64,000 nt of DNA from Psammoneis japonica (taxonomy: Eukaryota). The position numbers were made by a program, and so were the translations under genes. Below the pieces are notes generated by a model that was given only the letters and a program-made list of their open reading frames with translations, did no database searches and was not told where the DNA came from. The stretch spans positions 1-64,000 of the forward strand of contig QPGO01000199.1 of the NCBI GenBank assembly GCA_008632985.1. Direction: 5' to 3'. Shown in pieces: positions 1 through 64,000 of the stretch (position 1 is its first letter; the number at the start of each line of letters is the position of its first letter).

Positions 1-503
1 ATCTGTAACGGTTCTATTACGTTTTTAAATATCGAACCTTCAGCTTTATAAGTAAATATGCAAACGAAGCACATGAATGCGGAACAGCACGATACGAAGC
101 ACCAAAAAAAAAAGAAACCATGACGAATGGTGAATGCGATGAAGCCAAAACAAGTGGTCGTAGCCTCTGTTCACAGCAGAATGCAGAAACGCATGGCCGC
201 AATGATCAAGGTGCTCCTTGGTCGTCATCATAAAACTTCAAATCACACGGTCCGATGTCAGATGACGCTCTGAACTGCTCAACGGAGAACAGAGTGGTGG
301 GGCGGCATGACGTCACCTCTGTCCTCCAGTTGTCCACTTGTCATCGGAGTGGCGAATGACGCAAAAGTTTGGGAATCCATGCCACAAGCAGCGTGGTCAA
401 TGCTGCACTTGTCATGCCTGGCTTTGACTGGATTGGACACGACTTTTGGGAGGACCAGCAGGTCAGAAGGGCGCGCAAATTCTCGCAGAACTGGGGCCTG
501 TTT

Positions 504-896
504 GACGCGTTCCAGCCCCAGGTGGGACTCCGTGTGACATTGGGCCCGCAGAATTCTGCGTGCGAGCTCCGCAACATGAGAATTTAATCAATGGATGCAC
601 ACATCTTCAACGTCAAACAAACGGCCAAGTTTGTGGCACAATTGCGCCTCTTGCCACTCAGTGTTTTTGCAGGCGCGCCTGCCCCACATGATTCTTAAGA
701 CATTGTGGAATCGCGCTGTGACAAAAAATGTCAAAAGTTGTTGGATGGATCGCTCAACAAGTGTGCCATAAAATGACACAAAACATCGAAAAAATCACGC
801 AGAAATCTGCGCGCATGACATGCGATGAGATTCAAAAAACTGTCGACGTCACAGCTCAGCAGTGCGAGGTCCCACCTGGCAGACCTGGAACACGTC
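504..896. mobile_element. MITE, GAC-terminus family, copy 1 (TpA-depleted)
   Basis: TIRs GACGCGTTCCAGCCCCAGGTGGGAC ... GTCCCACCTGGCAGACCTGGAACACGTC; 4-bp TSD GTTT on both sides; colinear with copy at 4011-4401. Confidence 0.9.
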
Positions 897-2692
897 GTTT
901 GCAGAAAATGTTGATGTGCTCAACGTCTTCATGGTGGATCCAACAAACCTCAATGTCTTGTTTTGTGAGGCGGGTGTCAGAGATTTGATCGACACTTGTG
1001 CTGAGACGCAAAACAAGCCTGCAAGTTGGGGAGCAAGGTTCGTTGTCACAGACGTCATGAACGACTTCAAGACAACTCAAAACTCAATCAGCTCATCAAG
1101 AGCATGTTCCAGCATTTCAGAATTTTGGACAGTCCACTGATGCCACCAACCTTGCGGCGCGAGTGACAGCCAACAGCTGGCGGCTCGGTTTCCCACTGGA
1201 CTCAACTTGGGGTCGATTGAAGGGTTGCACAGGGCCTTTGGTTTCTTCAGATTGTCTCGAAAACAACAGCTCTGATTCTGAAGTGCAGCTTCTCGGGAGA
1301 CATGAGACAAAAGACTCTTGAGGCACTTTTCAATGCTTTCTTCTTGGTCCTCAGACTTGAGGCTCGTTGATTTGGTCTCCCAATTCTCTCCAATGGTCTC
1401 TCCTTGCACAGCAGATGCACTTCTTGGACCTGATCGACTTGTGACCTGAAATTCCATCCAGCCTTGACTTGGTGCAGACCTTTCAACAATGCTGTGCTCT
1501 TGCAAAGTTTTTGGTCCTGAGGCACTTGAAATGGATCGTGTTGGAACGAATCCCTTTGTCTTGAAGACAAAAAATGGGGTTCCATCTTGAGGCACTGCTC
1601 GGATTGAGCTGCTTCCGCTCGGAAATCGATTCCAGCAGAACCAGCGCATTTCACACCTGCTCATGGAAGCATTTGCAAAGGCACGCTGGCTAAAATTTTC
1701 ATTTTCCATGTTTTTGCCTTCTGTGGTGTGTGCACACAATGCACCATGCTCGAAGAACAAGCACAAACAAAAGCAGAATCAAGCATGAAAAGTGGAAATT
1801 ATGAGATTGAATTTTGCTCTGTGATTTTTGGTTTCTCCAAACGAGCTCTCAATGGCCTGAAGCTTCTGCACTGCTTCTGCAGACAAAAGGCCTTTCGGAG
1901 AACATGTTCGTGACAACAGATTGTCCAGATGCAATTGCCATTGACACACAAGATGTCAACATCATCAATCGATCGTGTTTGCAATTTTTGACATCCGATC
2001 AACTCTGTGTGGTCATTCTGTCCTTTGTGCACATTGTGCGATTGACGTGCAAACACAGCGCACAATTGTGAACATGCATGTGACAGTCACACACTGCACA
2101 TTGTCTGGCTGGATCACCAAAAAATGAGGAAAGTCATTGCACAAGAGAGAAGCTGAAGCCACTCAAAAAATTTCATTCTCTGCCTTGCATGAAGAAGCAA
2201 GCATTTGACATCATTGAATGAGGCCCCTGTCAGCAGCCAGTGGGTGCAAAGCACAAAGCTGCAGCTGTGCACACCAGCCCAAAAGAAAGGTCTGAGCAGC
2301 GCATCTGAGATTGAAAAGCTGCCAGAACAATGTGAAAAGAGTGGCACAAGACAGCATTGCTCATGCAGAAGCTCTTTGATCTCATGTTTCTTTGTTCATT
2401 TGGGCTTGGAATCAGCTCTCTGGAGATGAGCTCCTCCTTGGAGGCCTTTCCTGTTGCTTTGCAAAAAGCTGTTCAAACATTTCACGAGCTGCTTTGACAG
2501 CTCTGTTGTCAGCAGATCCACACTTCAAATGTGTCGCTGAGCTCTCTCCTTTGATTTTAGAAAGACCACTCTCTCCATGCAATGTCATCTTGATGAGTCT
2601 GGTCGACAAATGACAGGATGCCCAGACCCTTGCTGGGTGCATTTGTTGACACCCCATTTTGTGACATTGTCTGTGGCACTCGGTTCAAAAGA

Positions 2693-3089
2693 GACACGTT
2701 CCAGGTCTAGGTGGGACCTCGTAGGGCCCTACTGCTGAACTGTGACATCGACAGTTTTTTGAATCTCGTCGTATGTCGCGCACGTAGAATTCTACGTGAT
2801 TTTTTGATATTTTGTGTCATTTTACGGTACACTTATTGAGCGATGCGTCCAAAAACTTATGACATTTTTTGTTACAGCGCGATTCTATAATGTCTTAAGA
2901 ATCGCGTAGGGCAGGTGCATTTGCAAAAACGTCGAGTGGTAAGAGGCATAATTGCACCACAAACTTGGCCGTTTATTTGATGTTGAAGACAAACACATCC
3001 ATTAATTAAATTCTCGTACTACGGAGCTCGCACGTAGAATTCTACGGGCCCAATGTCACACGGAGTCCCACCTAGGGCTGGAACGCGTC
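2693..3089. mobile_element. MITE, GAC-terminus family, copy 2 (TpA-intact, inverted relative to copies 1 and 3)
   Basis: TIRs GACACGTTCCAGGTCTAGGTGGGAC / GTCCCACCTAGGGCTGGAACGCGTC; TSD AAGA; near-identical reverse complement of 4011-4401. Confidence 0.92.
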
Positions 3090-4010
3090 AAGAGTCAGAG
3101 TTGAACTCCTCAAATTGCCTGTCAGGCAGTCCCTTGATGAACCCTGGCAGCAACATCAGAACAACCACCACAGAGCAAAGGACAACCAGCTTCACCCCTG
3201 CCAGATGGAGGGGCCATGGGATGAACCCTGGCATCATTGCAGGCACGTGCTTTGCCAAACCAAAAAAAAGACAAAAAACAGGGCCAAGAATGAACACAAC
3301 AAAGACAGCTCTCGACACAGCAACTTTCCTTCCCTGGCAGTGACTGCATTCTGGGGCTGTTTGTTAGACAGACAACTGCAGCTGCTCCCCCTTTGTCCCT
3401 TGGAAGCACTGGAGGGAGACAAACGACCCATGGCAAAAACAGGAAACATGCAAAGAAGTGCCGAGTGAAATGCCAGCGATGCAAAAAACAAAAAATTGCA
3501 AATGAAATTTTGTGCGAAGTCAAACGGATCAAAATGAAAATTTCAGAATGCCCATGACTGCAAGTTCAGTGCACCTGCAACAACATTGGATGCAGAGATT
3601 GAAATTTTTGTCAACAGGGAGGGAAAAAATCCCTGTGGAGAAAAAGAGGTCTCGGGGCATTGCTGGGAAAAATGACAGCACCACCCAAAAAGAGCTGGAG
3701 ACTTGCACAAAGAGCAAGTGCAGGGGGGCATGCAGGGGGTGTGGCAACTTGAACAATTGGTGAGTTTGCGTCTGTTTCTGGAAGGTTGTGAGATCAAATT
3801 GAGCCAAGGGGACGTCAATTGAATGTTGTTTGGCATGCCTGCAGGGTTGATGCGGGTGCCACTCGATTCAGTCAGGGCCACAAGAAATTGATGCAGGTCA
3901 GCTGCATTGAATGAAGGCAAGGGCTCATTTGATGAATGGAAACCCAACGGATTCATGCAAGACATGCGTTGAGCCCGCCTCTGATGAAGTTCAGATGACG
4001 GTTGAAGGCA

Positions 4011-4401
4011 GACGCGTTCCAGCCCCAGGTGGGACTCCGTGTGACATTGGGCCCGTAGAATTCTACGTGCGAGCTCCGTAGTACGAGAATTTAATTAATG
4101 GACACATTTATCTTCAACATCAAATAAACGGCCAAGTTTGTGGCGCAATTATGCCTCTTACCACTCGACGTTTTTGCAAATGCACCTGCCCTACGCGATT
4201 CTTAAGACATTATAGAATCGCGCTGTAACAAAAAATGTCAAAAGTTGTTGGACGGATCGCTCAATAAGTGCACCGTAAAATGACACAAAATATCAAAAAA
4301 AATCACGTAGAAATCTACGTGCGCGACATACGACGTGATTCAAAAAACCATCGATGTCACAGTTCAGTGGCACGAGGTCCCACCTAGACCTGGAACGCGT
4401 C
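4011..4401. mobile_element. MITE, GAC-terminus family, copy 3 (TpA-intact)
   Basis: TIRs as above; TSD GGCA; the empty site is visible in a homologous sequence at about 25775-25810 (reverse strand). Confidence 0.92.
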
Positions 4402-4708
4402 GGCACACACCAAATGAAGATTCCTTGCTTTTTAAAAGACTCACACCTTGTGATCACCATGATGTTTGAACATGCTCTCCAGGTGTTTCTTCTTGCATTT
4501 GGTGTTGAACGTTGCCGCCACTGCAGCCGATCCCATGGTCGACTTGAGATGCGTGGCGTGTCTCTGCATTTCCGAGAGAAGAGATTGATTTTGTGGGTTG
4601 TGTGCTTTCGGTCGAAATTCGACAGCGCGATTGCCGCGTGGCGGACGTGGCCCAAAAGCGTCGTGAACCGAAGAGGGATCTCAGATCGAACAAACACAAC
4701 AGCAGAGG

Positions 4709-6321
4709 ATGAGCAACCACACCATCATGGCCACGGAAAATGGCGAGGACAGCGTTTCAAGCAATGATGCGGACAATGGCGATGACAGCGTCTCTGTTGA
4801 AGATGAGGGACCAATCATCAGCGACGAAGATTTTGCCAAAAATGAGCCAAGGGTTTTGGAAGCGTTGACCAGTGGAGATCCACGCAACTGCAGAAACCTG
4901 ATTTTGCCTTTTGGCGGGACATCCCCGAGGAGCTGCAGACCAACCCAGCGTTTCTAGCCAAGGCGGTTAGTGCGGGTGTGCAGAATGTTGCTTTCGATGC
5001 TGACAACAATTTGACAGCCCCAGAGTTCTTGGATGACCTGACAGCGGTTCCTGGTGCAGATGCCCTCGACAGCATGATGGAACAAAACCCCAATTTGGCA
5101 AACAAGAGGAAGTTCTGGTTGGCCGTCGCTTGCTCCTGTGACGCTGATTGTGTCAGAGGTGCTCCTCCTGGGATGTGCTCTGACAAGGAGATCCTGACAG
5201 CAGCGTGTGCAAGAGGGTGTTTGTGGGACCTTCTGGACGAGACTGCATTGAACGACAGGGTCTTTTGGTTGACCATTGCTCGCACTCTGGAAGAGGATGA
5301 GCATGACCAACACTTTGTTGAACACCATTTTGAGCAGCATGCTCCTCATGCTGTGCTCTGTGACAAGGAAATCATGGTGGAAGTGTGTTCAAGGGGATTC
5401 ATGTGGGAGCATGCTGATGAGGCTGTGCTGAACAATCCAGCCTTTCTGAAGGACATCCCACAACGGGACCCGAAATTTTTGAACCGTTTGGAGCCTGCAA
5501 CATTGTCTCGATTCCCCAACACTCTCATTGCGTTCTTGCCAATCGCCTTCCGCAGAGTGTGTGATGGCAATGATGCTGACTTCTTTGCATGGGAGAGGTC
5601 CATGGCAGATCAGATTCCTCAGGAAATGTGGAACAACAATCGCCATGTTGTCTGGGCTTGGTTCAAGGCAGGAGGCGCTTTCTTGCAAGGGAAGCATGGA
5701 GAACATCAAAACGATCCGCTTGTTGGTGGTTGGATTTGCCAACATTTTTTGCTTTCTGAGAAACTTTTGGAGCATTTCAGACTTGCGGCACCTGCATTGT
5801 TGAGCGAAAAAGATTTCATGATCAAAGCTGCTGCTCTCAACCTGAACATCTTTCATGTGGCAGCAGATGGTCTTCAGCTTGATTTCTCATTTCAGTTGGC
5901 TGCCTTTGGGGAGAGGCCTGATCATTGTCCACACACCAATGGTGAAACGTGGCCGAATCTGCGCCACTGCATGATGCAGTTTCGCGCAAAGGCCTCCGAG
6001 GAATTGCAGTCGCACCGCGATTTTGAGTTTTCAGCTCAGCGAATTCCTGACGTGTTGCCTTTTCATGTGACTGCAAACTCGAAAGTTCTTCCGGACGATG
6101 CCAGGGTCAAAAAGCTTGAGGTTGTCATGGAGAACATTGCCGCCGCCTCATTGGTGAAGAGTGGCACCATCTTCTGTGAGTGTCGGCAGCTGCCGATGGG
6201 ACAACCCACAACTCTTGTAGTGTGTTTTCCAACTGGCAGCCCTTCTGCATGTTTTTTTTTAAATGAGTGCATGGTAAAAAGGCCAAAAGGACGGACTTTC
6301 TGTTGTTTCTTAAATGAGTGA
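4709..6321 (+). pseudogene. DUF4116-like repeat protein, frameshifted and TpA-mutated
   Basis: Repeated DKEI(L/M)xxxCxxG / LLSEKDFMIKAA motifs resembling DUF4116 repeats; frameshift between ORFs 4709-4957 and 4978-6321; no Tyr in 447 aa. Confidence 0.55.
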
Positions 6322-6665
6322 CGGTGCCGTCTTGGAGCTGCAACAAGCGCGCCAAACCATGATTTCAGCATTTTAGCTCGCATCACTCCATTGTTTGTGC
6401 TCAACGTCTCGACGGCTCCACTTTTTGTTGTGACGGGCTGTCATCACAATGCACGGGGACATTGCCTTTCACAGAGATGCAACGAAGCAGTTGGTGCAAG
6501 ACACCTGTGCGAGCAAAGCAAAAACTGCTTGCGCCCCCCTTAAAAGAGTTAAGCTGTTCATTTCGTAATTCAACACAACTTCAACAAGTTTGCCAATCTC
6601 ACATTCCCCATCACAACACACAATCATCACATGACAGGCTCGTCATTTTCCCACATTCCATCGTG

Positions 6666-8490
6666 TCAAATCGATCCATCGGGGTGTGCTTTGACACACT
6701 TGCTGTGTGCGGCACCCGCTTTCCATTCTCCCTTGCAGCAACGTCCATTGCTCCAAAAGCATTCCCCGGACCCATCGTAAAAGCCATCTCTCCATCCTCC
6801 CTTGCAGCAACCACCATTGCTAAATCGATGCTCATCCTCCCCGTCTTGCTGTCCGTGTGCAAAGTCACCGGCACACTGACTCCCATCGGGCCACGCAAAT
6901 TGGCCCTTGCCATGTCGCTTGTTGAATGCAAGCTCCCCGTTGCAGGTGCATCCATCTTGCCATTGATGCAAGCCACCGCCGTGGCGTTGATCAAAGTGGC
7001 ACTTGCCTTCACAGGAATCGCCATTGCCAAAGATGGCCTTGCCAAAACCGCGCCACATGTCGTGATGCCAATCGCCCTCACAGGTGTGCTCGTCGACCTG
7101 ATGGACCATTTTCCCCAAACCGTGGGGCATGCCAAAATTTGTGAATTGACCAATTGCTGTCGTTCCTCGTGATGGGTGGAGGAGGCCGCGGCAATGCTGG
7201 TCATGGTGGCATCGTCGCCGTCATTGTGGTTGCTGTTGTTTGGAATGTACAAGCGCTCCATGTTGTTGTTGTTCAGTGGCTTGCCATCCACCATGCTGGT
7301 TGGAACTTGTGGTTCATCCAGAGAATGACCCTTGGGAAGCAAGGCATCATCATTGGAGGGTGCAATCAAGCTCATTGGTGACAACGCGTCTTCCTCTTGT
7401 TGTTGCACTGCCGCCGGTTTTCGATCATCATCTTGAACTGTTTCGAGTGCTGCCGGTTTATGCTCGTCATCTTCTTCCTCTTCTGGTTCCTCCTCCATTC
7501 ATTCAAAGCTGGAAGATGTGCCGTGGTTGGGCTTTCAGTGGCAGCCGCTGCAGCAGCGGTTGGGTGTGGTGTTTGTTTGCGGCGCGCTGGCGCCATTTCC
7601 GGAGCAGCCGCCATTGGACCACTGCTCGACAGTGCCGCCGCTGCACCCACCGCTGCAGCCGTGCCAACTGCAGCCACGGCCGTGGCCGGAGCAGTGTCCA
7701 TCTTGTTGGAAGTGACGGGTGTTTCCACTCGACTGCTGTTGCTGCTGCTCATGGAGGAAGAATCATTTGGAAGCCTTGGCCGTCTTTTTCGATGCCGCAG
7801 CGACAGAACATTCTTCATCATCATCTTGTTCCTCATCATCGTCGTCTTGAGCCGTGACCATGACGTGATGCTTGCGGGGAGCAGTGGCAGGAGCGTCTTT
7901 GACAGACGCTGCTGCAGTCGTGATGGTGCTCTCCTCGGTGAGTGGAGACTTTTTCGCATCGGGAACGGGGCTCACATGCGTTGGTTTCACAATTTGAATC
8001 AAGCCTTGGATCTCTTGTTTGGCAACATGCTGCTTTTGCTTTTCCTCCTCCTCCTTGTCATCATCTTTACGACTGCTCTTGCTTTGATTCTCAATCGATT
8101 TCTCCACGTCTTTTACTTGCTTTTCGACATTTTCCGAGGGCACTCGCTGCATTGTGGCATTGTCATTGTTGCTGCTGTCACTGCCTGCTTCCATGGAGGC
8201 TTGCAGCTTGTGCCACATCGGATGCCGGTTCCAGGTCATGCTTGATTTGTTCTCATTGTTGCAACCAATGTGTTTGTTGCTGTTGCATCTTTTCCATTTG
8301 TTGCGCCAGCGTGGCAACCACGATGTTGTTGCTTTGTGGTGATTGCACCCAACCGTTGTCATCGTCGGCGTCCATGATTTTCATGTCCACACTGCCAGGA
8401 GCACCAGTGCTGATTGTGTTTGCATTCATCATGTCTGTGTGCGTGAGTGTGTGTGACTGACATGTGTTGCATTGTTGCAGCTGTTGTGGT
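6666..8490 (-). pseudogene. MORN-repeat protein with low-complexity N-terminus, frameshifted
   Basis: ORF 6666-7130 has about 6 MORN repeats (xEGxWxxxxxHGxG) with the consensus Tyr replaced by Cys; upstream acidic/Gln-rich segments in shifting frames; 5' limit approximate. Confidence 0.75.
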
Positions 8491-11400
8491 TCTCGTGCTG
8501 TTGCATGTTTGGGTTTTGTTGCATTCCCCTCTCGGAACAATCCGATGCATGATGATGCTTCGGCGGAGGTGCATCGCTGCGGTTGTGTGTGTGTGCTTGC
8601 TGCTTTCCGTCCCAGCTCCATGATGCCACGTGTAAAAATTGACCCCCAGTTTTTAACCAAATGCCCACCTCAATCGACTGACAGCACACAGATGCGCAGT
8701 TCAGCACAATTTTGGGGGCCTGGAATGGGGGCAGATGTCAGTTGCTTGCCAATCACTGAATGTTGACTCTTGCACTTGCCCGTGTTGCAAAGGTGCTCCA
8801 CGAAAAGTTGGCTCTGTTTTGAAACACCAGATGCCATGAACAATGCACACCTGTTGCATTCTCGCAAGACATCGGTTTGAAGAGCATGAGACCGACAATG
8901 CTCACATCTTGTGCATTTTGTGGCTCTGCTCTCTCTGGCCACACGGCAGACAGCGGGGGTCAAAGTCCAGCTGATCTCTTCCAAAAAATGTGAGTCGAGC
9001 GGGTCATGCGGGATTCAAGACGCGTGACTCACTGCACGTGAAGGGAAACTTGACCCTTTCTTGACACCGAGATCAGATGATGACATCAACACAAGAGCTG
9101 TTTCATGGCTGCACTCTATTCTCCAATCCATGGCTGGCCTCATGACAACTGTGTTTGACCTGTTTCATGCCATGGACAGGCCAAGCAATCCACGAGAACT
9201 CACCCCACAAGCACCAGCACACTTTTGGTTGAAGGGTCAAGGAAAATGATGGCAGTTTGAACATCCTGATCAGCGACAATGTTGACAGGAAGGTCAGTCC
9301 ATTGGATGTTCATTGTGGAAGCATGCTGTGTTGCTGCTTTCTGGAGAGAAGACAGAAAAGCATTCACACGAGCCTTGTTTGCATGTGCCGCCACCTCCAG
9401 ACAGCCAATCTTGATGATGTCTCTTGAAGCGACCTTCAGCCTTCAACACCTTCTCACCAAAGCCAAATGGCGACTTCTGAGTCATCATTTGAAAACACTC
9501 CAGTCATGAGAAAATGTCGTCATGTCATTGGGTCTGGCCGCAGCTGGCAGGTGTTAGAAAAAGCAGCCCCGCAGCCAATGGCAGCAACATTTTGCACCAG
9601 CGCACACAGGCATGTGGTGTTTGCTACATTGAAGCAGCATTTGCTGCTGCCGCCAGTCAAAATGTGCAGTGGCAGGCAGCGCCACAAGGGTGGTGCCATC
9701 TTCTGTCTCTCTTTTCCACGCGCGCCTTCTTTGTGTGTGGCCTCAGCACCATCCAGCTCTGCTTTGGTGGCTGACCATTCAACATGAGAAGAGCAACATC
9801 ATCGCAAGTTTTTTGGAAGACAAGGAGAGTGTGGCAGCTGTCTCAGATGTCTCCTGGGTTGACGCACAGCAATGACTGTGGGACAAGGGCTGGCATGCAA
9901 GAAAGTCTGTGGCAGAGCAGCACAGCACCAGCTGGGGCACAAAGTCATCACCAGGTTTGCCAGCGGAGGAGCGGCAATGTGGCAAACACTTGTGCTGCTT
10001 GCAACACATGACCTCTGGCTTGCCTGGTTGGTGTGCTCTCAGCTGGTGAGCACTTTGCTCAATTTGGCTCAACTGAGTGAATCCCCAAAATTTCCCGGGA
10101 TTGCCACATTTTGCTGCTGTGTTTTCCATGGGAAGTGCGATTTGCAGGGAGATGCAACACGTGTGCTGCTTGTCACACATTTGCTCCTGTCATTGATGCA
10201 AATTCACACATTGGCAGTTCCTTGTGCTTCATCTGTCATGCATTTCTGTGCTCCTTCTGCATCATGTTGGGCAGCGCACATGTGCCAGACAGCGGAAATC
10301 GACAATTGACCGCACCGGCCACAACAAAAATGGGCAACGTGCAGCTTTTGCTGACCAACCATGACTCCATTTGATGCATTTGACAATGTTGATTTAATGG
10401 GGTCGATGGCACAAAACACAAGATGAAATGTGATGGGCTGTGCTGTGCAGAAGAATGCCAGCACAATTGGCTGTCAGCCGCAATTTGTTTTTTTAATGTG
10501 CAGCCACAAATGCAAGCCATGAGGTGCACAGTGAAGGCCAAGGCAAAAGTGGAGCCATGCATGGTTGACAAACACAATGTGGCAGATTGAACAGACAATC
10601 TCGTTCTTCCAACTGACACGCATCTCGTGTGCATGTGCAGAACGAGCATGAACACTTCCGCGTGTGTCGGCATGCTTGGATCAATTTCGTCAAGAAATGC
10701 TCACCCAAGTTGATGGTGACAATCACACATTCAAATCCAATGTTCACATGTTGGAGTTTGGAGAATCAGCAAATCAACCGATGTTCTTCACAAGATGGAC
10801 CTTTTTTGGTGGAAGACGTGCAGACAAAAATCGCTGTTTGTGACAGATGCACTCCATGAAAGTTCTGCATCAGAGTTGCATTGTGGCTCAAAAGGTTTGA
10901 CCAAATGTTTTTGATTTTTGCTTGTCCATCATCCATGTTCTCCGTGCCTTTTGTGTGAAAAAAAAAGCCATCGACCATCATGAGTGCGCTGTTCCGAGGT
11001 CGTCAATGTCGACAATTGAGGAGGAATTGGGGAATGACAGTCTCTCTTGCCCCCAACAGAAGGACACTGTGAGGCAACTGCTCCTCAAAGTTTTGATTTT
11101 AGTGATGTTTTTTGCATTTTCACTGACTCAACCACATTCGCCTGTTGCCGTTGCCACCAACAGAGTGCGAACGCACCCAAGACCTCACCAGCAGAGGTGC
11201 GTGCTGCCGTTGACTCCTTTGTTGCCATGAGGGGTCAATGGCAATGATTGTTGGTGGTTGGAATGAATGGTGACAAAGTTTTTCAAGTGCTTGAGATGCT
11301 GGAAGCTGTTGGAATGGAGACTCCTGATGGATTGGGCTCATCTGACCAAACCAATGTAAGAAGTTCTTTGAGTGATGTTGCAACTGTTGGCACTCCATTG

Positions 11401-11922
11401 TTGATGCAACACATGCCCAAGCCAGCCATCTGGGGCTCTCAGGCTGGTTTGTCTAAAAAAAAACAGTGACAGCTGCTGCAAGGAGAGGCTCCTCAAAAGT
11501 TTGGTTTGAGCCAGTGCCACGAAACACACTCTCTGGGGTTTGCTGCACCTGCAATGCAGCAGGGAAGCCAACACCTTGCCAAAGCATTTGAGCCAATCAC
11601 CCAAACTGGTGAGACAATTTGAAGCACCACGACTTCTCAGTGGGCAGCTGTCTCAATGAATGCAACCTGATGCATGGCCAATTCTGCAATTGATGCTTGA
11701 GCATTTCAAAAGAACTGTGTTCAGTGCAAAAAAACTGGACCTGGAGCTTGTCTGGGCTTGACGATGTCACGTGATGGCATGGAAGAGCATCACACTTGGG
11801 GCATGCCATGACTGCTAATTCGCCCTTTTCCCAATCTCTCTGCCACCATGATCCCGTTGTAAGTGCCACCTGGTTTCAATTCTGTCCCACTGTTCAAACA
11901 TCGCGCGTCTTTGGTTGAGAAC

Positions 11923-11988
11923 AAGGATCTCTTTTTGCGTTGACAAACTCAAGAAAGGATCTCTTTTTGCGTTGACAAACTCAAGAAA
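11923..11988. repeat. 32-bp direct tandem duplication
   Basis: AAGGATCTCTTTTTGCGTTGACAAACTCAAGA x2. Confidence 0.85.
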
Positions 11989-16600: not shown

Positions 16601-16769
16601 CCAACTGAACACCATGGCGTGCCACATCCCTGGAGCCCGTCAGTGCCCACTGTCGCCTCAACGCCTCTTCAATGAAGAGAAGGGGGTGCGTGGGAAGCAT
16701 GAGGGCAATGAAACCACTTTCCGCTTGCATTTGCCAGATGCATCACCCTGTCACATTGCGACAGTTTGA
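13605..16769 (+). mobile_element. Truncated Ty1/Copia (CoDi-like) retrotransposon gag + aspartic protease ORF
   Basis: Gag zinc-knuckle-like CxxCxxxxCxxxxC and WKWCATC...H motifs; protease-like VMDAGA...TP.K.DF.GP...I.GIA.GL.I.G.G.V.W.F; ends before integrase; only one Tyr seen in 1054 aa; LTRs not verifiable. Confidence 0.8.
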
Positions 16770-45365: not shown

Positions 45366-45374
45366 TTCGAGGTA

Positions 45375-45736: not shown

Positions 45737-46009
45737 TATATATGATATTTGTGAATGGTTATTTATAAATGATAAGTTCGTCCCGTCAGAAGCCCTACGT
45801 AGACTGCCGTAAAATGCAGTACAAATTTTAACGGTGTTCGTACCACGCATGGCAACAGGCTCGCACGTAGATTTGTGCCGGAGCTTGTACATCCTGATAG
45901 ACTTATAAATCCTTGACCGGACCCATCTACTTCTATCGGAGATCGGAGCGATGCACCATGATGAGCGACGGAAGTTCGTTGCCCCCGTCGCCCCGTTGCT
46001 GCTAAAACA

Positions 46010-49056: not shown

Positions 49057-49332
49057 TGACAGAAATTGAAGGCAAATGGCAAGAATTCAAACAACAACTC
49101 CTTGCTGCTGTCTAAACAGCAGATGAGTCTCCGCTCAGAGACCGTCACAGGAGCCAAAAGACGTGCAAGTCGGTGTGATCGGGCTGCTGTTGTCATTCTT
49201 GTGAGCCTTGTGGCTCAAAAGCAAAGTGCATCGCGCGTGAACGCGCGGAGCTGAAGCACACAAAACTGTGCGCGGCAAACTAAACAGCACGCGACACTTC
49301 GCGCGCACCCAAATCCTGTTCAAATCCTGTCA
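49057..49332 (-). repeat. 3' LTR of the Copia element
   Basis: Direct repeat of 55793-56068. Confidence 0.95.
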
Positions 49333-54951: not shown

Positions 54952-55792
54952 TGCTGGTTGGGAAGCGAAGGCAGACTCGAAACTTGGGTGAGAATGGACT
55001 TGACTTGAAGTGGACTTGACTTGAAATCTTGAGCTGTCTTAAAATCAGAAGTCGCCGGGCTTTGCTGTCCCGTTCGTTGTTGGGTGCTAAACTTCCCATC
55101 CGGTCCGCAGAGTTGTGCCGGCACGTCCGAACCCGCAGCTGGCGGCGCTTTGGGTTGCTTGCGAGCGGAGCAGCGGTTGGATTTCCCGATCAGGCTGGCC
55201 AGTTGACGCAGGCGTCAGGCACTGTGGACGAACGAACAAATGCGGGAAAGCACCCTCGCCCCAACGCAGGCTGCAATCACGGCTGCTTGCTCTCACAGTC
55301 GTCCTCGTGGACCTAGCAGAACTGCAGAGCACCAGCAGTCCGGGGTGGATCAGGTGCAATGGACTCGGTGTGCTTGCAGAGTGGTGGCAAAACCGCAGTC
55401 CGAAGAGTGGGTAAAGGTTCTTGGCCGTGAAGACATGCATGTGCACACACATGTCTTCAGCGACTAAGATCCTTGAACATGTGGGGTTCTTGACCGTTAA
55501 CCGAGGAACAGGTGTGTCAAGGGATGTTGATCAAGGACAGACTTGGATGTGACCGTTGAACACATGTCTTCAGCGATCAAAGGCAGCATGATCAATCCAG
55601 ACATCCAGCGGCAAGGAGACTTGACGGTGACGTTAACTTCCTGCCGATGCCCTGGTGTTGAATGCGCGTAGACTTGCCGATGTATGTAGAACATGTGCGG
55701 AGGTCCACGCAGGATTGAAGTGGCGTCGTTGGTAAATCAACGACGACGATGGCGGTTGCTCAATGGGTTGACAATGACCAAGACTGTTGGTC

Positions 55793-56068
55793 TGACAGAA
55801 ATTGAAGGCAAATGGCAAGAATTCAAACAATGACTCCTTGCTGCTGTCTAAACAGCAGATGAGTCTCCGCTCAGAGACCGTCACAGGAGCCGAAAGACGT
55901 GCAAGTCGGTACAATCGGGCTACTGCCATTATTCTTGTGAGCCTTGTGGCTCGAAAGCAAACTACATCGCGCGTGAACGCGCGGAACTAAAGCACACAAA
56001 ACTGTGCGCGGTAAACTAAACAGCGCGCGATGCTTCGCGCGCACCCAAATCCTGTTCAAATCCTGTCA
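55793..56068 (-). repeat. 5' LTR of the Copia element
   Basis: Direct repeat of 49057-49332. Confidence 0.95.
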
Positions 56069-59059
56069 GCAATCACTTGTGTTTGTCAAGGGTTTGTTTG
56101 GAGGATGATCCTTTTGTGATTGCAAAGTCATCAACAAGAGGCAAAATGAGGTTGGAGTTTCTAATCACTTTGACACTGGTTGTCTCATTGAGGCTTGTGG
56201 CTCATGCTTGCACCGGGGCAAAAGTTTCTTCTTTGCAGGGTTGTGACTTCAAGAACCCTTCATGGGGGCTGTTTCATGGTTTGATGGGAGCCAGTGAGGA
56301 GATTGTTTTTGCACCATGAGACAACCCAAATGAAGGACACTGGTCATTGCATGTTGTTGTCAACTTCAACAGCTGTTGTGGGCCACAGCATGAGATTCAT
56401 CTTGTCCAAAGGCATGTGTTTGGGTGTGCTTGGCCAGGTGTCATGACAGCATGCTCATCTCCACATGGAGTGCTTGTCTTTGACCAAGTGGCGTGCTCCT
56501 GCGGTTCTTTGCATTGCACATCCTTGCAGCAGGCCCTGATGCTGTGAGAAAATCCCTTGTCCATTGAGGCTGTCATTTGCTTGCTGGACAGAGGGTGCAT
56601 TTCAAGGACAAACGGCTGGGCAGGTTGAACCTGGGAAGCCACCTGATGATGTCCTTTGTGTCATTTTGGATGCTGGCTCTTGTTTTTTTTAGGTGTGCCA
56701 CAAGCTTGGGATTTTCTGTGTTGTGCTTGGAAGGAGAATGTTGATCAGAGAGCTGCTGGGGTTGAGGATGGCAAGCACATGGGCTCTGCCATGTTCTTCC
56801 TTGACTTTGGGCTCAGACTGGTGGCGCAGACTGCTTTGTCAGCTGCAGGGGATGGTTGGCTTGCCAGACAAACTGCACAGTGCCATTGACGTGACAAATG
56901 GATTGAACACCTCAAAGCTCATCCTTGTCCAGCAGGGCCAACAGTTGAAGATGTTGAGTTTCTGCATTGGTGGACCATGACAACAAGAATCTTGCCATTG
57001 TGCGCTGGCACATGATGGACTGAGAAGCTGACAAAGGCGTTTGCACCAGACACACCTTGGCTGACATTTTTTGTGGTGCTTTGAATGGCAAGAAGCTTGT
57101 GTGCCCACAATGTGTCAAGTGCTTGCAGCACTGCCTTTGCAACAAACTGGCAATTTGGCCCTTTTTGACAAGCTCCACATCATGTGGAGCTCTCATTTTC
57201 ATGTTGCTTCCACATGGAAGCTCGCCAGACCATGCAGGCCGCCAGTGGCTGTTTTGAAATGGTTGTCCGGCCCCTTTTTGTAAAGACTGTTCAGAGAAAA
57301 CATGTTTTTGATGATGTTCTTCAATGTCTGGAATCAGGGTGTTCTCATGGCAGCTGTGTGGATGTTGGCATTGAATGTGTGCATGTCCACATGAGCCTGT
57401 CCACCACCAAAAAAATGTTTGTGCTCTGAAGAAACATTTTGTCTCAACTGTGATTGGAGCTTGGCAGATCAGACAAATGCCGCCAGTTTTCCTCAAATTT
57501 GAACAAATTTCAACGCTTGTTTGAGGGCACCTGTGCCCCAGCTTTGGAAAGATGTGCCTTGATGGCCAACAAATGATGCAGCCTTTGGCGCGGCATGCAC
57601 ACCTGAAATGACAGAGGGCCCACAGGGCACAGAGTGTGCAAAGTTGACATTCAACCATGGCAAAGTTGACACACCTGCTTTTCTTTTTTTGTGTGAACCC
57701 ATGTGCCACAATGGCAATGCAGAGCCAACACACAAAGCATCTTTGTGGTCTGGGGACTCCATTGCATGGCATGCATGGTTGCAAAATGGACAAAAATGCC
57801 TTGAAAATTGAGTCGAACATTGTGCCCACATTCCAAACTGCTCCACACTCTGTGTTTCAAACTGCTGACCACCATGAACAGACACAGTGCCCAGCATGAT
57901 GAACAAGCTCATGCCAACAAACTGCAAGAGCATGGCTGCATCAATCATGGTCAAGAGGTGTCCAACATTCCCAATGCCTTCCTCATGTTGCAAGCCATGG
58001 GCAAGTGCAAAAACAAGGGGAGGTGCTGAAAGCAGCGCAGCTGCAGTGCATGGCAGACTGCTGCAGTGACACCCTGACAATGGTTTTGCTTGAACAGCCA
58101 GTGGGCGGTGCACTCATTTTGTGAAGTCTCTTCCTCTGATGCAGTGAAATCTGAGAGCAGCAATGACAAGCAATGCTCGCTGCACAATGATTGTGTGTGA
58201 CACCTCATTGTCATTGCCCACACATGCTTGAAGAGGACAAGGATGAACTCTGGGAACAACCCACTCAGCTGGCCAAGCAGCACACCACCCAAGTGAGTTT
58301 GTTTCATGCAACAGAGTGGTGATTGCCAAAGAAGACAAAGCACAAGTGCAGCTGATCCTGCCATGCGCTGATCTGGAACATTTTTTGCCATTCTTTCTTT
58401 GAGAGGAGAGTGCCAAGACAAGCAAAACCAAAAGACAACATTTGCAACAGACATGCAGTGTTTTGCAGACCACAATGTCATTGTGAAGTGTGCTGTGCAC
58501 ATGACAACATGATGCTTGCTTTGCAGTTCAATTGTGTCAACAAGCTTTTGACTGATGAAAGATTTGCAGTTTCGCCAAGTGGGCACAAACAAAAACTCTG
58601 GGCAACCATGCTGCTGCATGACAACACAAACAAGGGATCACATGAAGAAAACAAATGCCATGCATGAACAGACTGTGTGCTCTGCAATGACAGAGAGACA
58701 ATCCAATGACATGCGGTCATGATCCATTTTCACATGAGATTTCTCCCTGTTCTTGGGCTTGGAGTTTGGAAAGCAATTCAACCTTCTTTTCCAAGTTCTG
58801 ACATTTGTTTTTCACATCCACACCAGAGCCAACTAAGAGCAATGTTGTGAACCAGGAGATTGCTCTTGATCTGACTCCAGCTTCATTTGCCATGTTTCTT
58901 CAAGGCATGATGCAATGCCTGAGTCTCCTCATCAGCCCATTGAAAGCAGCACTCCCCCCCCCCCCACACACACACACACACATGCACACCACACACACCT
59001 CCTGGACCAGTTGGTTGCATCCCACCCACCACCTTGCCCTCTCCTCACAAGCAGGAGTT

Positions 59060-60700
59060 TAGACCTTGGAATGTTCTGGAGCAGTGCTGAGCTTCACACC
59101 CTCCTCCAATTCTTCCTCCTCCTCCAATGTGCAGCTGAGCCCCAGTGCTCATGCAGTTGGCTTTGGGGTCATGGCTGTGTGTTGCTCATCAATGGGGCTG
59201 GGCCAGCTGGGTGACCAGGAAGGAAATTGCACAGACAGAGTGGGAGTGGCAGACAACTCCTCTCTGACAGATGCTGGTTTGTGGGACAACAGAAGGGTGT
59301 GAGCAGGGAGGGGCTGGGGCTGGGCAGCAAGGTGCTGCAAAAACTCACAACAATTGCAATGGGCTTCTGTGGCATCTGGGAAGGGGGAGTGCCACACAGT
59401 GTGGGAACTGGGGTGTCGGGATCAAAGCTGCAGCAGACATTGGAGACAAGGAGATGGGGCAAAGAGGAGATGGCACAGCAGATGTGGTGGAGGGTGCTCT
59501 TGGTCTGAGATGGACAAACGGTCATGATCAGTGTGGAGCAAGGAAGCTTTTTGTGCAAGGCAAGTGCAGACAAAGTCAGCGCTGCCCTGACAGGCTGGCC
59601 AAGGAAGTGGAGGCCAGCTGCAACTTCTGGTGAAAGCAGAGGGTTGGCAGCGGGGTTGAGGAAGGCAAGTGCCTTGTGCAAGGCATCTGTGCTGTCAGGC
59701 AGGGGACAGTCTTGGAGTGGGCTAGAACCAGAGATGGAGGTTGGGATGCACATCTTCAAGCAATTGAGTTTTGTGCCATGCTGTGGGCCAATCTGGGTGA
59801 GCTGCAGAAAGAACCATGGCAGCTTGGCATGCAGCAGCCAGACACTGGCATCATTTGATGATGGGAAAACAGCAGAAGTTGTTTGAGGAAAGCAACCTGG
59901 CTTCCAGCTGCAGCAAGACACTCCATTTGTCAGAGTTGTCACAATGCCAACATGTGTTGGGAGAGGCACAGCAGAGGTCAAGTGAAGAGAGGCACCAGAG
60001 AGTGCGGGGTTCTGCACAACAAGCGGGGTTGGCGTTTGGCATCAAGAGCCTCTCTGTGGCATTCAATGTTGGTGTGGGTGGTGCGGATGAGGCAGCCAAG
60101 GCCACCTTTGATGCCGGCCCTGAATTGGCCATCTGGGAGGAGGCAGTGGGTGAGGGCAGGAGCCTTCAGAGTGAGAGAGCCTGTGACACATTGGATGTCA
60201 GTGTTGCCACAGCCAATGGGCCATGGCTTCTTGAGGTTTGTTTGGTCTTTGTGTGGTGTGACATGGATGGAGCAACTGCTGGCTGGCAGAGGGGTGGGCA
60301 GATTTCATCAGAGGGGCCAAACTGGCTTGGGCCAGGAGAGTGAACTGCTTCTTGAGTGTTTTGAAGCATGTGGGCCTCATTTGAGTCTTGGGGGGTGCAA
60401 AGACTTTAAAGAAGGTGCAGGCCTTGAGTGGGTTGACGGAGTTGACACCAAGGATTGGCAGCAGTGCCCAGCTTCTTGCAGCAGCACTTGCAGCCAAGAG
60501 CTGCCAGGAGCTGCTTGTGTCCATCTGTTGCCTCAGAGGTGGGGGGGCTGGAGGAGGGGTGGGGTGGGGTGGCAGGCATTGTGTGTGGTGGTTTTTGAAG
60601 TGCAGGCAATTCAGGGTGGGCACAGCAATTGTGTGATGGGACTGTGGTGTGAATGGGGCATCATGGCATGGCTGTGATGTGGGCATCAACAAGCAAAGAG
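59060..60700 (-). mobile_element. Decayed non-LTR retrotransposon (CRE-like RT) fragment
   Basis: GLHFLGQPV...QTKSTL...LPHLL segment; partly homologous to 62850-63950; limits approximate. Confidence 0.6.
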
Positions 60701-60739
60701 CAAACTGACAGAAAGATGTTCACTGCAATTTCCCATGAT

Positions 60740-62830
60740 GCACGCAGATGAATGAATGTGGCATCACACATGCCACTGCAGGGGTGCCTGCTGCAACGGA
60801 GATGAAGCTTTCTGTTGTGTGTCAATCCTGATGTTGGCCAGAGTTGACTGTCAACTGTCACCTGTTTCTCATGATGTGTTTGGTGCTCCTCTTGGCCCTT
60901 CTGCCAACACAAAGCATTTCTTGAGAGCAGAGTTGTTGGGCATGCTGGTGTTTCTTCAACACGGGCCGATGATGTCATCGCCGTTCTGTCAAAGAAGAAG
61001 AGTCAGGCTGAGGGGCAGGAAGAACATCAAAGGTTTCTTGATGCTGCCAGGGCCAGCTCTCAGATGACAGCCAATGCCAGGACAAGCTGTTGGATGAGTG
61101 ATGCATCTTGGCAGAGGCAAGCTCGCTGATGAAGATGGGGAGCTTGTTGTTGAGCACAAATGCACCATTTTGCTCTGTCAGCAGGGAACCTGTTGATGAG
61201 TGCAATCACTTGTGTTTGTCAAGGATTTTGTTTGGAGGATGATCCTGTTGTGATTGCAAAGTCTCATCAATGAGGGGCAAAAATGAGGTTGGAGTTTCTG
61301 GCCACTTTGATGCCAGTTGTCTCATTGTGGCTCATGCTTGCTCTGGGGCAAAGGTTTCCTTTTGCAGGGCTCTGCAACTCCAACCCTGCATGGGCTTTTT
61401 TTGTGGACAACCCAATTAAACAAGGAGATCAGCCACCACATGTTGTTGTCAACTTTGGCAGCTGCTGTGGACTGGCATGGGACAATTCATGTTGTCTGAA
61501 GGTGGCACATGTTTTGATGTGCTTGGCTGGGTGTCATGACAGAGCACATGCTCATCTAAATGGAGTGCTTGTCTTTCTCCAAGTGTGCTCCTGTTTCTTG
61601 CATTGCACATCTTTGCAGCTGCCTTTGCTGCAAGCAAACCTCTTGTCCACTGAGGCAGCCACTTGCTTGGACAGCAAATGCATTTTGAGAACAAACGGCT
61701 GGGCAGACTGAGCCTGGGAAGCCACCTCCTGATGACATTTTTTGGACCCTGGTTCTTGTGCTTTTAAGGTGTGCAACAAGCCTGGGATTTTCTGTGATGT
61801 GTTTGGAAAGGAAAAGTCAACTGGAAAACTGGGGGAGGATGGCAGGTGCATGGGTTCTGTGGCATTCTTCTGCAAGTTTGGGCTTGGGTTGGTGGGCACT
61901 GCTTTGTCAGCACCATGAGTTGCCAGTGCGCAAGGCAGGGATGGCTGACTTGCCAGACAAAATGCACAGCACCATCATTTGATGTGACAAGTGGGTTGAA
62001 CACCTCAAAACTCATGCTTTTCCACCAGGGCTGACAGATGAAAATGCTGACTTTCTGTTTCAGTGGGCCAAGACAACAAAAATCTTGCTGTTGTGTGGGG
62101 TGCATGGGTTGAGAAGCTGACAAAGGCATTTGTGCCAGATGGGCCTCATTGGCTGGCATTTTTTGTGGTGTTTTCTGTGTGGCCAGAAGTTTGTGTGTCC
62201 ACAGTGTGCAAAGTGCTTGTGGCACTGCCTTTGCAATGAACTCTTCTCATCAGACCACACAGGCCAATGGCTGTTGCAAAGTGGTTGTCTGTCCCCCTTT
62301 CACAAAGTCTGTTGAGAAAACAGATGCTTTTGGTGCTCTTCAACTGGGGTGCTCTCATCACTGTTGCATGGATGACATTGGCATTGAATGTGCCCATGTC
62401 CACACAAGCCTGTTCACCACCAAAAAACATGTGCTCTGAAAAAACATGTTGTCTCAACTGTGATCAGAATTTCAAACTGCTGACTGTGACAAACCGACAT
62501 TGTGCTCTGTGCTCCAATTCAAACTGCTGACTGTGACAAACAGACACAGTGCCAAGCATGACAACAACAAACCACAAACTTTGTTGGCAGTCTTGCAAAC
62601 AAACTGCAAGAGTGTGGCTGCATGAGTGGCCATGATTGGGAGGAGCTCAATGTTTCTGAGGGTCTCATGTTGCAAGCTGTGGTTGATGAATGCAAAAATG
62701 AGGAGAAATGCTGAAAGAGATGCTGCTGCAGTGCGTGACAGACTGCTGCCATGACACCTTGACAATGGCTTGAAGAGCCAAAATGTGGTGCATTTCACAA
62801 AGAAGTCTCTTCCTCTGATGCAGAGAGGAA
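60740..62830 (+). repeat. Diverged duplicate of 48580-49056 + 56069-58150 lacking the Copia insertion
   Basis: Colinear blocks such as CTTCTGCCAACAC.AAGCATTTCTTGAGAGCAGAGTTGTTG; empty site GAGTGCAATCACTTGTG at about 61198-61214. Confidence 0.85.
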
Positions 62831-62849
62831 TCTGAGAGAGCAATGATGA

Positions 62850-63950
62850 CAAGTGGTGCTTGTCACAGGACTGGAACCAGAGATGGAGGCAAGAATGCAC
62901 ATCTTTGAGCAGCTGAGTTTTGTGCCATGCTGTTGGGCAACATCTGGGTGAGTTGCTCAAGGAACCACATGGCAGCTTGGTGGGTGGCAACCAGATGCCA
63001 GTGGCACAGTCTAATGACAGGGGAGCCACAGAAGTTGAGAGTTGGATGGAGGGAGATGCAAGCACAGCTTGGTGCTCAGCTGCTTGAGGATGATGCTCAG
63101 AGCTCAGGCAGAAAATGGCGGGCCTGGCAGGCAGCATTGGATGAAGCCCTCCAGCTGCAGAAAGGCGCGCCATTTGCTGGGGTCATTGCGAGACACCAGC
63201 ATGTTTTGGGATGGGCAGCCACAGCAGAGGTCAAGTGAAGAAGAGAGAGGGGGAGAGTGTGGTGCAAAAGACAGGGTTGGCATCAAAAACCTCCCTGCAA
63301 ATCTCACAAGAGCACTCATTAAAAACGTTGATGAGGTCAAGGGTGAAAAAGGAGTGTGTTGGAATTTCTTCATCCAAGCAGCAGCAGCAGCCAAGGCAGT
63401 TGAGGCCACCTTTGGTGGCTGCCATCCCTGAGAATTGTCTGTCTCTGGGAGGAGGGAGCAGAGGCAAGGGCAGGAGCCTTGGCAGTCATGGCAAAAGTGC
63501 CTTGACACACTGGGTGGCCATGGGGCGCAACTTGTTGGGGTTTGTTTGGTCTCTGTGTGGCGCCAGCACCAGATGGACAAAGCAGCTGGCTGGCATGAGC
63601 AGGCTGATCTCATCAGGGGGGCCGCCAAGCTGGCTTGAGCCAGGAGAATGAGCTGATTGAGTGTTGCAAAGCAGGGCCTTGTTTTGGATTTGAGGGTGGT
63701 GCAGAGACTTTCAAGAGGGGGCACAGGCCTGGAGTGCATGTCAGCAGCAGAGTCGACGCAACAGTGTGCCTGGCTTGCACACTTGCTGAGAGCTGCCAGG
63801 AGAAGAGCTGCTCATCTGGCATTTGAAGGGTGGGCAATTCGGGGAGGGCACAGGGATTGTGTGATGGGATGCGAACGGGGCATCATGGCATGGCTTGGGG
63901 GCATCGACAAGCAAAGAGCGGACAGACAGGCAGACGTTCACTTCTAAAAA
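62850..63950 (-). mobile_element. Decayed non-LTR retrotransposon (CRE-like RT) fragment, second copy
   Basis: LDLINVFNECS.EICRE and W..FLQ.EGF.Q.C..GP.FS resemble RT motifs LD..NxFN and QG.PL; limits approximate. Confidence 0.65.
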
Positions 63951-64000
63951 GCGAGGGACGACATGGAAACCGCAAACGCACACACCCAAAAAATTTGGCG

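Follow-up and report, generated by a model that had tools for sequence, protein, structure and literature searches.

A sharply bounded TpA-to-TpG/CpA hypermutation footprint in transposon-rich DNA of the diatom Psammoneis japonica, probably left by a domain-restricted mutational process

We analysed a window of 64,000 nucleotides from the diatom Psammoneis japonica (assembly GCA_008632985.1, contig QPGO01000199.1, positions 1 to 64,000 of the forward strand), in which blocks nearly devoid of the dinucleotide TpA (hereafter TA) alternate with blocks of ordinary composition. A two-state hidden Markov model (HMM) applied to the positions of TA served to segment the window, and observed-to-expected ratios (o/e) were calculated with the expectation taken from base composition (Table 1). 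The large normal region 17992–30689 carries pieces of host genes, namely a histone deacetylase and a SET domain, and the other, 33427–46018, carries eIF4E, a TFIP11-like G-patch/GCFC gene and a TNP/P-element-like transposase frame. The depleted segments contain Copia-type retrotransposons with long terminal repeats (LTRs), copies of a miniature inverted-repeat transposable element (MITE) and remnants of repeat genes. Much of the other depleted sequence has no family recognisable by Pfam: among 88 open frames of the depleted segments, Pfam returned MORN, leucine-rich repeats (LRR), a weak match to DUF4116 and nothing else, and the integrase and gag of the Copia element were not recognised by Pfam even at E ≤ 1.

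Table 1. Segments and elements of the 64-kb window, in order of position (TA and CG values are counts or o/e)
Feature	Position	Strand	Content and remarks	Basis
TpA-depleted segment	162–2707		7 TA; TA o/e 0.04, CG 0.57	HMM
MITE-like element (~395 bp, terminal inverted repeats), hypermutated copy	502–897	+	3 TA kept	
MITE-like copy, TA-keeping	2693–3091	-	26 TA; within depleted domain	
TpA-depleted segment	3074–4055		1 TA; TA o/e 0.02; between two TA-keeping MITE copies	HMM
MITE-like copy, TA-keeping	4011–4402	+	22 TA; 93% identical to 2693–3091	
TpA-depleted segment, largest of left half	4434–17991		50 TA in 13,558 bp; TA o/e 0.06, CG 0.63	HMM
MORN-repeat coding remnant	6669–7220	-	In depleted domain	Pfam, E 1.9e-15
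Second Copia-like element	13545–16766	+	1,074-codon open frame	
LRR-coding tandem array	17260–18270	+	Seven 144-bp units; straddles domain edge	
Normal-TpA comparison region	17992–30689		617 TA; TA o/e 0.69, CG 1.01	
TpA-depleted island flanked by gene regions	30690–33426		4 TA; TA o/e 0.02	HMM
MITE copy, decayed	31109–31521		Inside depleted island 30690–33426	
Normal-TpA comparison region	33427–46018		518 TA; TA o/e 0.59, CG 0.99	
TNP-like RNase H domain frame (P-element/THAP9-type transposase)	40251–45281	-	Intact, 1,676 codons	Pfam, E 1.6e-07
TpA-depleted segment, takes in most of Copia element	46019–55633		46 TA; TA o/e 0.10, CG 0.77	
Copia-type LTR retrotransposon, complete	49057–56068	-		RVT_2, E 1.3e-21
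Copia reverse-transcriptase active-site box	50432–50479	-	CECIAVHVDD; YEYIAVYVDD in relatives	
TA-richer patch over Copia 5′ LTR	55634–56017		384 bp; 12 TA; TA o/e 0.52	
TpA-depleted segment, oldest-looking	56018–64000		13 TA; TA o/e 0.03, CpG 0.14	

Over the whole window (64,000 nt), the o/e was 0.33 for TA, 1.41 for TG and 1.43 for CA. The six depleted segments, which make up 37,421 bp or 58% of the window, contain 121 TA against 2,179 expected (o/e 0.056; 0.02–0.10 across the segments), whereas the remaining 26,579 bp contain 1,204 against 1,882 expected (o/e 0.64). When 200-bp windows were counted, 103 of the 183 within depleted segments were free of TA, compared with none of the 128 outside. 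The o/e of TG and CA was 1.45–1.99 in the depleted segments and 1.08–1.18 in the two large normal ones, and the GC fraction was 0.48–0.55 in depleted DNA and 0.47 outside. At the left edge of the island in the middle of the window, TA dinucleotides follow one another at 5–30 bp through 30689, beyond which come just two, at 30868 and 31217; 32490–33426 is free of TA, and TA is dense again starting at 33427. The edges of depletion are thus abrupt, lying within tens of bases. A previous reading of the letters by themselves (the sequence-only reading) had described TA-poor stretches with an excess of TG and CA, abrupt boundaries, one of them near 33410, and normal TA in the intervening gene regions. 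All of this is borne out: the HMM segments agree with its coordinates to within tens of bases, the spacing of TA switches at 30689 and 33427, and TA o/e is 0.69 and 0.59 in 17992–30689 and 33427–46018. A small island that it had placed near 28960–29240 does coincide with a 226-bp gap free of TA (28955–29179) but, taken alone, is just borderline. It had noted neither the TA-keeping patch over the 5′ LTR of the Copia element (55634–56017) nor the low CpG of every depleted segment.

A sequencing or assembly artefact could in principle give such a picture, for instance if a modified base at TpA in heterochromatin were miscalled by long reads; TA read as TG or CA, on a random strand and in silent chromatin, is what a systematic modified-base miscall would be expected to produce. 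Raw reads were checked for retained TA with two runs from one sample, X1 and X2, of which X1 was compared with the window over 28001–48000 by exact 31-mers. A 1,409-nt X1 contig with a mean word depth of 63.6 matched the TA-poor sequence of 31491–32899, within the depleted island, without a single difference or gap, and none of the 5 differences listed within the island 30690–33426 restores a TA. Read depth was alike in depleted bins (73–143) and gene bins (89–125). The 31-mer depth suggests that the X1 data are accurate and polymerase-read, and such data would be expected to read a modified A or T by base pairing. X2 gave no cover in several depleted bins, an absence that was not used as evidence. 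In favour of an artefact, the run that confirms the letters stems from the same sample and could be the very data from which the assembly was made. Set against this, the same signature in the chlorarachniophyte Bigelowiella natans (10.64898/2026.01.13.699255; discussed below) was called from Illumina data. We give an artefact very little credence.

The direction of change was established with relatives of the Copia elements. We aligned the translation of the complete element with 59 full-length relatives and defined Tyr columns as those in which at least 80% of the relatives have Tyr. At the 38 columns so defined, the window element has Cys 21 times, His 9 times, Tyr 5 times, Phe twice and Trp once; at the other conserved columns, it kept the consensus in 631 of 700. 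Tyr is encoded by TAY, Cys by TGY and His by CAY (Y, pyrimidine). In the active-site box of the reverse transcriptase, the three Tyr residues of the relatives are replaced by Cys, Cys and His in the window copy. Tyr accounts for 0.4% of the residues of the window's Copia frames and for 3.3–5.0% in all 120 relatives among the matches listed. Among the 1,074 residues of the second Copia-like frame there is a single Tyr. At 25 positions where its relative P0145, a protein with gag-pre-integrase and Pol beta-barrel domains, has Tyr, the window frame reads Cys 12 times, His 4 times and Tyr never. At the nucleotide level, the Copia family has a TA o/e of 0.33–1.07 at all of 80 metagenomic loci, 75 of which keep a median of 94% of the conserved Tyr columns. 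The MORN remnant at 6669–7220 has six repeat starts of the form C-x-G (CEGDW, CEGKC, CNGEL, CAGDF, CKGGW and CKGEW), at which the MORN consensus has Tyr. TA is the ancestral state in the depleted segments, as the comparisons with Copia relatives show. The change from TA to TG or CA (A:T to G:C on either strand) that had been read from internal comparisons is thus supported by outgroup polarisation, with 30 of 38 and 16 of 25 Tyr positions turned to Cys or His.

We considered the opposite polarity, in which the TA-poor sequence is original and a C→T process at CpA/TpG, like the repeat-induced point mutation (RIP) of fungi, made TA in the copies that look normal. The comparison of three MITE copies (see below) is by itself insufficient against it, as the two TA-rich copies are sisters. 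However, Tyr stands in 59 relatives at the positions where the window reads Cys or His, and the relatives at the 80 loci are TA-normal; to our knowledge, moreover, there is no class of sequence with a TA o/e of 0.02–0.10. The outgroup Tyr columns and the TA-normal relatives together exclude the reverse reading, whose probability we regard as negligible, and the suggestion that the TA-poor copies might be the ancestral ones, which the sequence-only reading had itself raised, was checked against the relatives and proved not to be so. Searches for Copia relatives in viral contigs and for nucleotide relatives above 70% identity, which would allow a finer polarisation, found none.

Two metagenomic contigs deserve separate mention. 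Among the 80 relatives, L026 (2,561 nt) is the one lowest in TA o/e (0.33), and it keeps 9 of 16 conserved Tyr columns, with His at 5 and Cys at 0; it is without a close nucleotide relative to polarise it and may be a partly hypermutated copy affected on one strand, or natural variation. In L055, the flank (1–618) of a TA-normal Copia relative has 2 TA in its first 500 nt against about 29 expected, raised TG and CA, and an abrupt change at about 619. This flank has no sequence similarity to the window and may represent the same footprint elsewhere, at a different site or in a different organism.

The timing of the change relative to duplication can be read from repeated sequences inside the window. 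The Copia element, flanked by a 5-bp target-site duplication (GCAAT), has 276-bp LTRs (TG...CA) at 49057–49332 and 55793–56068. Their 20 mismatched positions comprise 14 of the TA/TG, TA/CA or TG/CA kinds, 3 of CpG type and 3 others. The element is nested in an older repeat (48588–49056 plus 56069–57460) with a second copy at 60745–62470, and the two copies share 78% identity across 1,676 bp, with 53 double mismatches of CA versus TG and at most 6 in every other double-mismatch class. The 53 CA/TG pairs point to a palindromic ancestor (TA, or CG in a CpG-poor stretch) that was resolved separately in each copy. Since both the LTR pair and the older repeat pair were mutated independently, the mutation came later than their duplication. 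In the MITE copy at 502–897, a member of a class of DNA transposons, the 20 TA sites common to the two other copies became CA at 9 and TG at 8 and were kept at 3. The units of the LRR array, which crosses a domain edge, have 1–2 TA each on the left of that edge and 4–5 on the right, and vary among themselves at TA/TG/CA positions (CTGTGTC, CCACATC and CTACATC are instances). The change thus affects retrotransposons, a DNA transposon and repeat genes alike, and the sequence comparisons point to a change that occurred in chromosomal DNA. The extent of mutation is uneven within a single insertion: the 5′ LTR of the Copia element (55793–56068) keeps 8 TA and the 3′ LTR (49057–49332) 2, the former being less mutated.

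Editing before integration, as a candidate, could cover some of the LTR differences but not the MITE, the arrays, the nesting or the domains that span unrelated fragments, and was rejected. A related possibility is A-to-I hyperediting of transposon transcripts by an ADAR-like enzyme, followed by reverse transcription and reinsertion. Retrotransposons are indeed among the targets, and ADARs prefer a U 5′ of the edited A. But both strands are affected about equally, the DNA transposon copy, the LRR units, the MORN repeats and the nested older repeat are affected too, and the LTRs of a single insertion differ mainly at TA-type sites. The 3′ G preferred by ADARs is, in addition, opposite to the data, in which TAG-type flanks survive best (see below). 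We consider hyperediting of RNA extremely unlikely. ADARs share with the process in the window the A→G outcome and the preferred 5′ U but are metazoan enzymes of double-stranded RNA with, as tabulated in a review, a 5′UAG hotspot; here the substrate is chromosomal DNA, and a 3′ G is among the least favoured.

The depletion is confined to one dinucleotide. AA had an o/e of 1.09–1.40 in depleted and 1.14–1.17 in the remaining DNA, AG of 0.89–1.05 and 0.96–1.00, respectively, and TT, CT and AT were likewise unchanged between the two. Survival of TA, expressed relative to its density in the normal segments, with the gene regions of the window taken as a proxy for ancestral composition, depended strongly on the flanking bases (chi-square p 5e-24): it was 0.011 for RTAY (R, purine; 6 sites), 0.058 for mixed flanks (52 sites) and 0.239 for YTAR (63 sites). 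At the extremes, ATAT has 0 survivors, ATAC/GTAT stands at 0.004 and CTAA/TTAG at 0.28. An additive per-strand model, in which the base 3′ of the mutated A is favoured in the order T > C > G ~ A, fits roughly. Among MITE sites with asymmetric flanks, the change lay on the strand predicted by this model in 10 of 13 (one-sided p 0.046), and at TAY codons of both Copia elements Cys outnumbered His by 33 to 13 (p 0.0045). TpA alone is targeted, and the preferred motif is 5′-T-A-Y (or, if the thymine is the base affected, R-T-A). The gain of NTGN and NCAN was discarded as a measure of context, being confounded by composition with respect to both the gene regions and 57 Copia relatives (the window Copia is GC-richer), and the flank rule is based solely on the survival of NTAN.

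This specificity bears on a candidate listed in the sequence-only reading, a pol-eta-like polymerase that makes errors during repair synthesis in heterochromatin. The A→G errors of pol eta fall at WA motifs (W, A or T), a class of two dinucleotides to which TA belongs. However, the other, AA, is unchanged and AG is not raised in the depleted segments, so the WA→WG signature does not fit, and the near-total loss of one dinucleotide, as with the absence of surviving ATAT, would be hard to obtain from occasional repair patches. A polymerase of this kind is, in our estimation, very unlikely to be responsible.

The depleted segments are also poor in CpG, with an o/e of 0.14–0.77, compared with about 1.0 in the two large segments of normal TA. 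Diatom transposons are methylated, and the loss of CpG suggests that the depleted domains are probably silenced and cytosine-methylated, now or formerly. The two losses nevertheless differ in pace. The interior of the Copia element has 37 TA against 294 expected, about 90% having been lost, and 454 CpG against 517 expected; with TA so reduced while CpG is near expectation, TA loss must be far faster than CpG decay. TA loss and CpG decay are separable, the latter being a second, slower process, and both have gone far in 56018–64000, which is depleted in TpA and CpG alike. Deamination of 5-methylcytosine had been dismissed in the sequence-only reading, rightly, since CpG loss cannot remove TA and the Copia element combines a TA o/e of about 0.1 with 454 of 517 CpG. 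The same holds for its dismissal of fungal RIP, as TpA is here destroyed rather than created and GC is not lowered. The restriction to repeat-rich domains with sharp edges also stands, with the addition that these domains are CpG-poor.

Because the segment lowest in CpG (0.14) is also very TA-poor (0.03), age is partly involved, and one may ask whether any targeting is needed: a genome-wide neutral bias against TpA could show up in old, unconstrained DNA, with genes protected by selection. Yet the Copia element has lost about 90% of its TA despite only some 3 LTR differences outside TA and CpG sites and a CpG count near expectation. Adjoining AT-rich non-coding stretches and putative introns keep their TA; three putative introns outside the domains, recognised by GT..AG joints in run X2, have TA at 0.5–0.76 of expectation. 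Edges resolved to tens of bases likewise speak against a neutral bias. A genome-wide neutral bias does not account for the pattern, and we rate this explanation as highly unlikely.

The closest precedent comes from mutation-accumulation lines of B. natans (Mettrop et al., bioRxiv 2026; 10.64898/2026.01.13.699255). There, two integrated viral regions accounted for 231 of the 302 point mutations in nuclear DNA; all but one of the 231 were A→G or T→C, and those transitions were all at TpA. The rate in the viral regions was about 6e-7 per site per generation, in some lines only. The genome held 124 clusters that were TpA-poor and rich in CpA and TpG, as well as 324 TpA-poor coding sequences, with reverse-transcriptase and DDE domains enriched. 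The authors proposed, without proof, an ADAT2-like adenine deaminase, citing DNA activity of amphioxus ADAT2. In its abstract, Results and Discussion, the preprint mentions neither diatoms nor flanking bases.

The resemblance to the window is close. In both, TpA alone is affected and yields TpG and CpA, in confined nuclear regions and far above background, and mobile DNA is affected here as the clusters enriched in reverse-transcriptase and DDE domains suggest for B. natans. The differences are of host, a rhizarian chlorarachniophyte there and a stramenopile diatom here; of target, giant-virus and virophage inserts there and LTR retrotransposons, a MITE and repeat-gene arrays here; and of degree, with a TA o/e of 0.45 in the giant-virus region and a near-saturated 0.02–0.10 in our segments. 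De novo mutations were measured in B. natans, whereas the diatom offers a historical footprint, by which alone the rate is known. The T-A-Y rule and the link to CpG loss were found here and are absent from the preprint text available. The sequence-only reading had called the process undescribed; as a process it is reported in the B. natans preprint, and what stands is that the literature searched, in which subscription-only papers were outside the scope, contained no description of TpA→TpG/CpA hypermutation in diatoms, the report on B. natans being the sole relevant one.

Taken together, the footprint is real, and we think it likely that the window records a domain-restricted TpA→TpG/CpA hypermutation of mobile and repeated DNA, resembling a genome defence and forming the diatom counterpart of the B. 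natans process, carried out by a TadA/ADAT-like DNA adenine deaminase. Under this proposal, TpA in chromosomal DNA would undergo A:T→G:C transitions on either strand, becoming TpG or CpA much faster than the background rate allows. Sharply bounded, transposon-rich and CpG-poor domains alone are affected, and neighbouring genes, putative introns and some repeats are spared. A nuclear deaminase of the TadA/ADAT kind would turn the A of T-A into hypoxanthine, read as G on copying, and the elements would be disabled by missense changes as Tyr codons turn to Cys or His, those of the YxDD box of the reverse transcriptase included.

A TadA/ADAT-like DNA adenine deaminase would be the most likely candidate enzyme. 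Conversion of adenine to hypoxanthine is the chemistry of TadA and ADAT2-ADAT3 and gives A→G. The A34 edited in tRNA is preceded by an invariant U33, which gives tRNA deaminases a U-A-C context that resembles the T-A-Y rule; the flank rule is compatible, although a 3′ T is at least equal to C. The review table mentioned above gives 5′ACG as the TadA/ADAT2 context. By contrast with what is proposed here, the natural enzymes act on tRNA, and activity on DNA is known from engineered editors.

The same domain-restricted process could instead start from a lesion on thymine, an oxidised or hypermodified base resembling 5-hydroxymethyl- or 5-formyluracil that mispairs with G and gives T→C. Each TA→TG change is a T→C change on the opposite strand, and T-A-Y reads equally well as R-T-A. 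The 5-hydroxymethyluracil of dinoflagellates shows enrichment at TpA and TpC, and 5-formyluracil promotes T→C mutation. No sequence feature, however, prefers a thymine lesion to adenine deamination, and the thymine lesion has no counterpart to the match between T-A-pyrimidine and the tRNA-deaminase context. We regard it as unlikely.

Several points weigh against a targeted adenine deaminase. The enzyme is a pure inference, and the 64-kb window encodes nothing of the kind. TpA is self-complementary, and sequence cannot separate adenine deamination from a thymine lesion. The provenance of run X1 has been mentioned above, as has the reliance of the survival analysis on gene regions as a proxy; a check of the context against the Copia family is confounded by differing GC. 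None of the 80 metagenomic loci is a hypermutated relative with a TA o/e below 0.33, in a search biased by the use, for one of two patterns, of a sequence with three Tyr. A Wald-Wolfowitz runs test for strand-coordinated tracts of TG or CA in the depleted segments gave z of -1.5 to +0.9, that is, no clustering, with power limited by the fact that most TG and CA are background; there is thus no sign of processive action on a single strand. As to what is targeted, the two MITE copies inside a depleted domain keep 22–26 TA though they differ by 7%; they may have been inserted late, or the process may be episodic. Several stretches with many matching read contigs keep their TA, and some depleted ones are at single-copy depth, although depth reflects copy number poorly. 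The labels "any repeat" and "any DNA in the domain" both fail to describe the target.

Some further features of the window were recorded. The TA-keeping MITE-like copies at 2693–3091 and 4011–4402 are inverted with respect to each other and bracket 920 bp of TA-free DNA; they may form a composite element or be two separate late insertions. Terminal repeats or target duplications were looked for at the edges of the island 30690–33426, and none was found. In the normal region to its right, the TFIP11-like exon (34702–36060, - strand) matches 24 homologues, none of them above 41% identity, and the four that have names (Attheya, Cylindrotheca, a Bacillariaceae metagenome-assembled genome and Chaetoceros) are all diatoms. 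The transposase frame at 40251–45281 has a near-normal TA o/e of about 0.4–0.55, and a tandem repeat of about 147 bp, with copies 98% identical, lies just upstream of it at 39735–40085. A high-depth read contig joins 39286 to 44982, omitting 5,695 bp, which suggests that related copies of the flanking repeat exist without that insertion. Contigs of run X2 omit three stretches bounded by GT..AG, 39246–39349, 40159–40555 and 40628–40731. They are probably introns in a gene or element that is transcribed, and X2 itself probably derives from RNA.

The process would be a mirror image of RIP. The RIP of Neurospora and other fungi, which is further marked by a trigger of repeat length or identity, premeiotic timing and dependence on RID/DIM-2, is alike in its massive, dinucleotide-specific transitions made in situ, independently in each copy, with a sharp-edged footprint and dead elements left behind. 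But RIP changes C to T at CpA, creating TpA and lowering GC, whereas the diatom process removes TpA and raises GC, and some repeats escape it in the window. RIP also makes stop codons, while TA→TG/CA cannot create one in any frame and removes TAA and TAG, so that frames stay open: those of 1,074 and 1,092 codons are open in dead elements. Long open frames also occur on both strands of depleted DNA at 17309–18469 (-) and 17313–18629 (+), and another, 52420–54384 (+), lies opposite the Copia frames. With AID/APOBEC3, the shared traits are enzyme-driven editing of mobile DNA, a short context and a role in innate defence; those enzymes convert C to U on single-stranded cDNA and leave strand-biased G→A clusters before integration, whereas in the window it is integrated DNA, with DNA transposons among it, that carries A:T→G:C changes, on both strands.

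On this comparison, the diatom case reads as a second lineage with the system of B. natans rather than as something categorically new. What the window adds is the diatom lineage, ordinary transposons as targets, near-saturation, the T-A-Y rule, the link to CpG loss and the consequence for open frames. A wider view, which we put forward only tentatively, is that of an ancient defence common to diatoms and chlorarachniophytes and possibly present throughout the stramenopile-alveolate-rhizarian (SAR) group, in which a nuclear deaminase derived from TadA/ADAT, guided by chromatin or small RNA and directed to a T-A-Y motif, would strip silenced mobile DNA of its TpA, act as the mirror image of RIP by inactivating elements through missense changes with their frames left open, and remodel much of the genome (58% of this window).

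Until now, A-to-G hypermutation directed at TpA has had a single report, the 2026 preprint on one rhizarian alga. If the interpretation given here is true, the process is not peculiar to a single species, and ordinary transposons are affected beyond integrated viruses. The T-A-pyrimidine rule places a constraint on any candidate enzyme, and comparative genomics of lineages with and without the footprint offers a route to it; a natural, context-specific DNA adenine editor would be of interest to the fields of genome defence and base editing. For the reading of such genomes, domains without TAA and TAG will lead gene finders to over-call long false frames on both strands, and hypermutated copies, which diverge fast, will be undercounted by repeat annotation.

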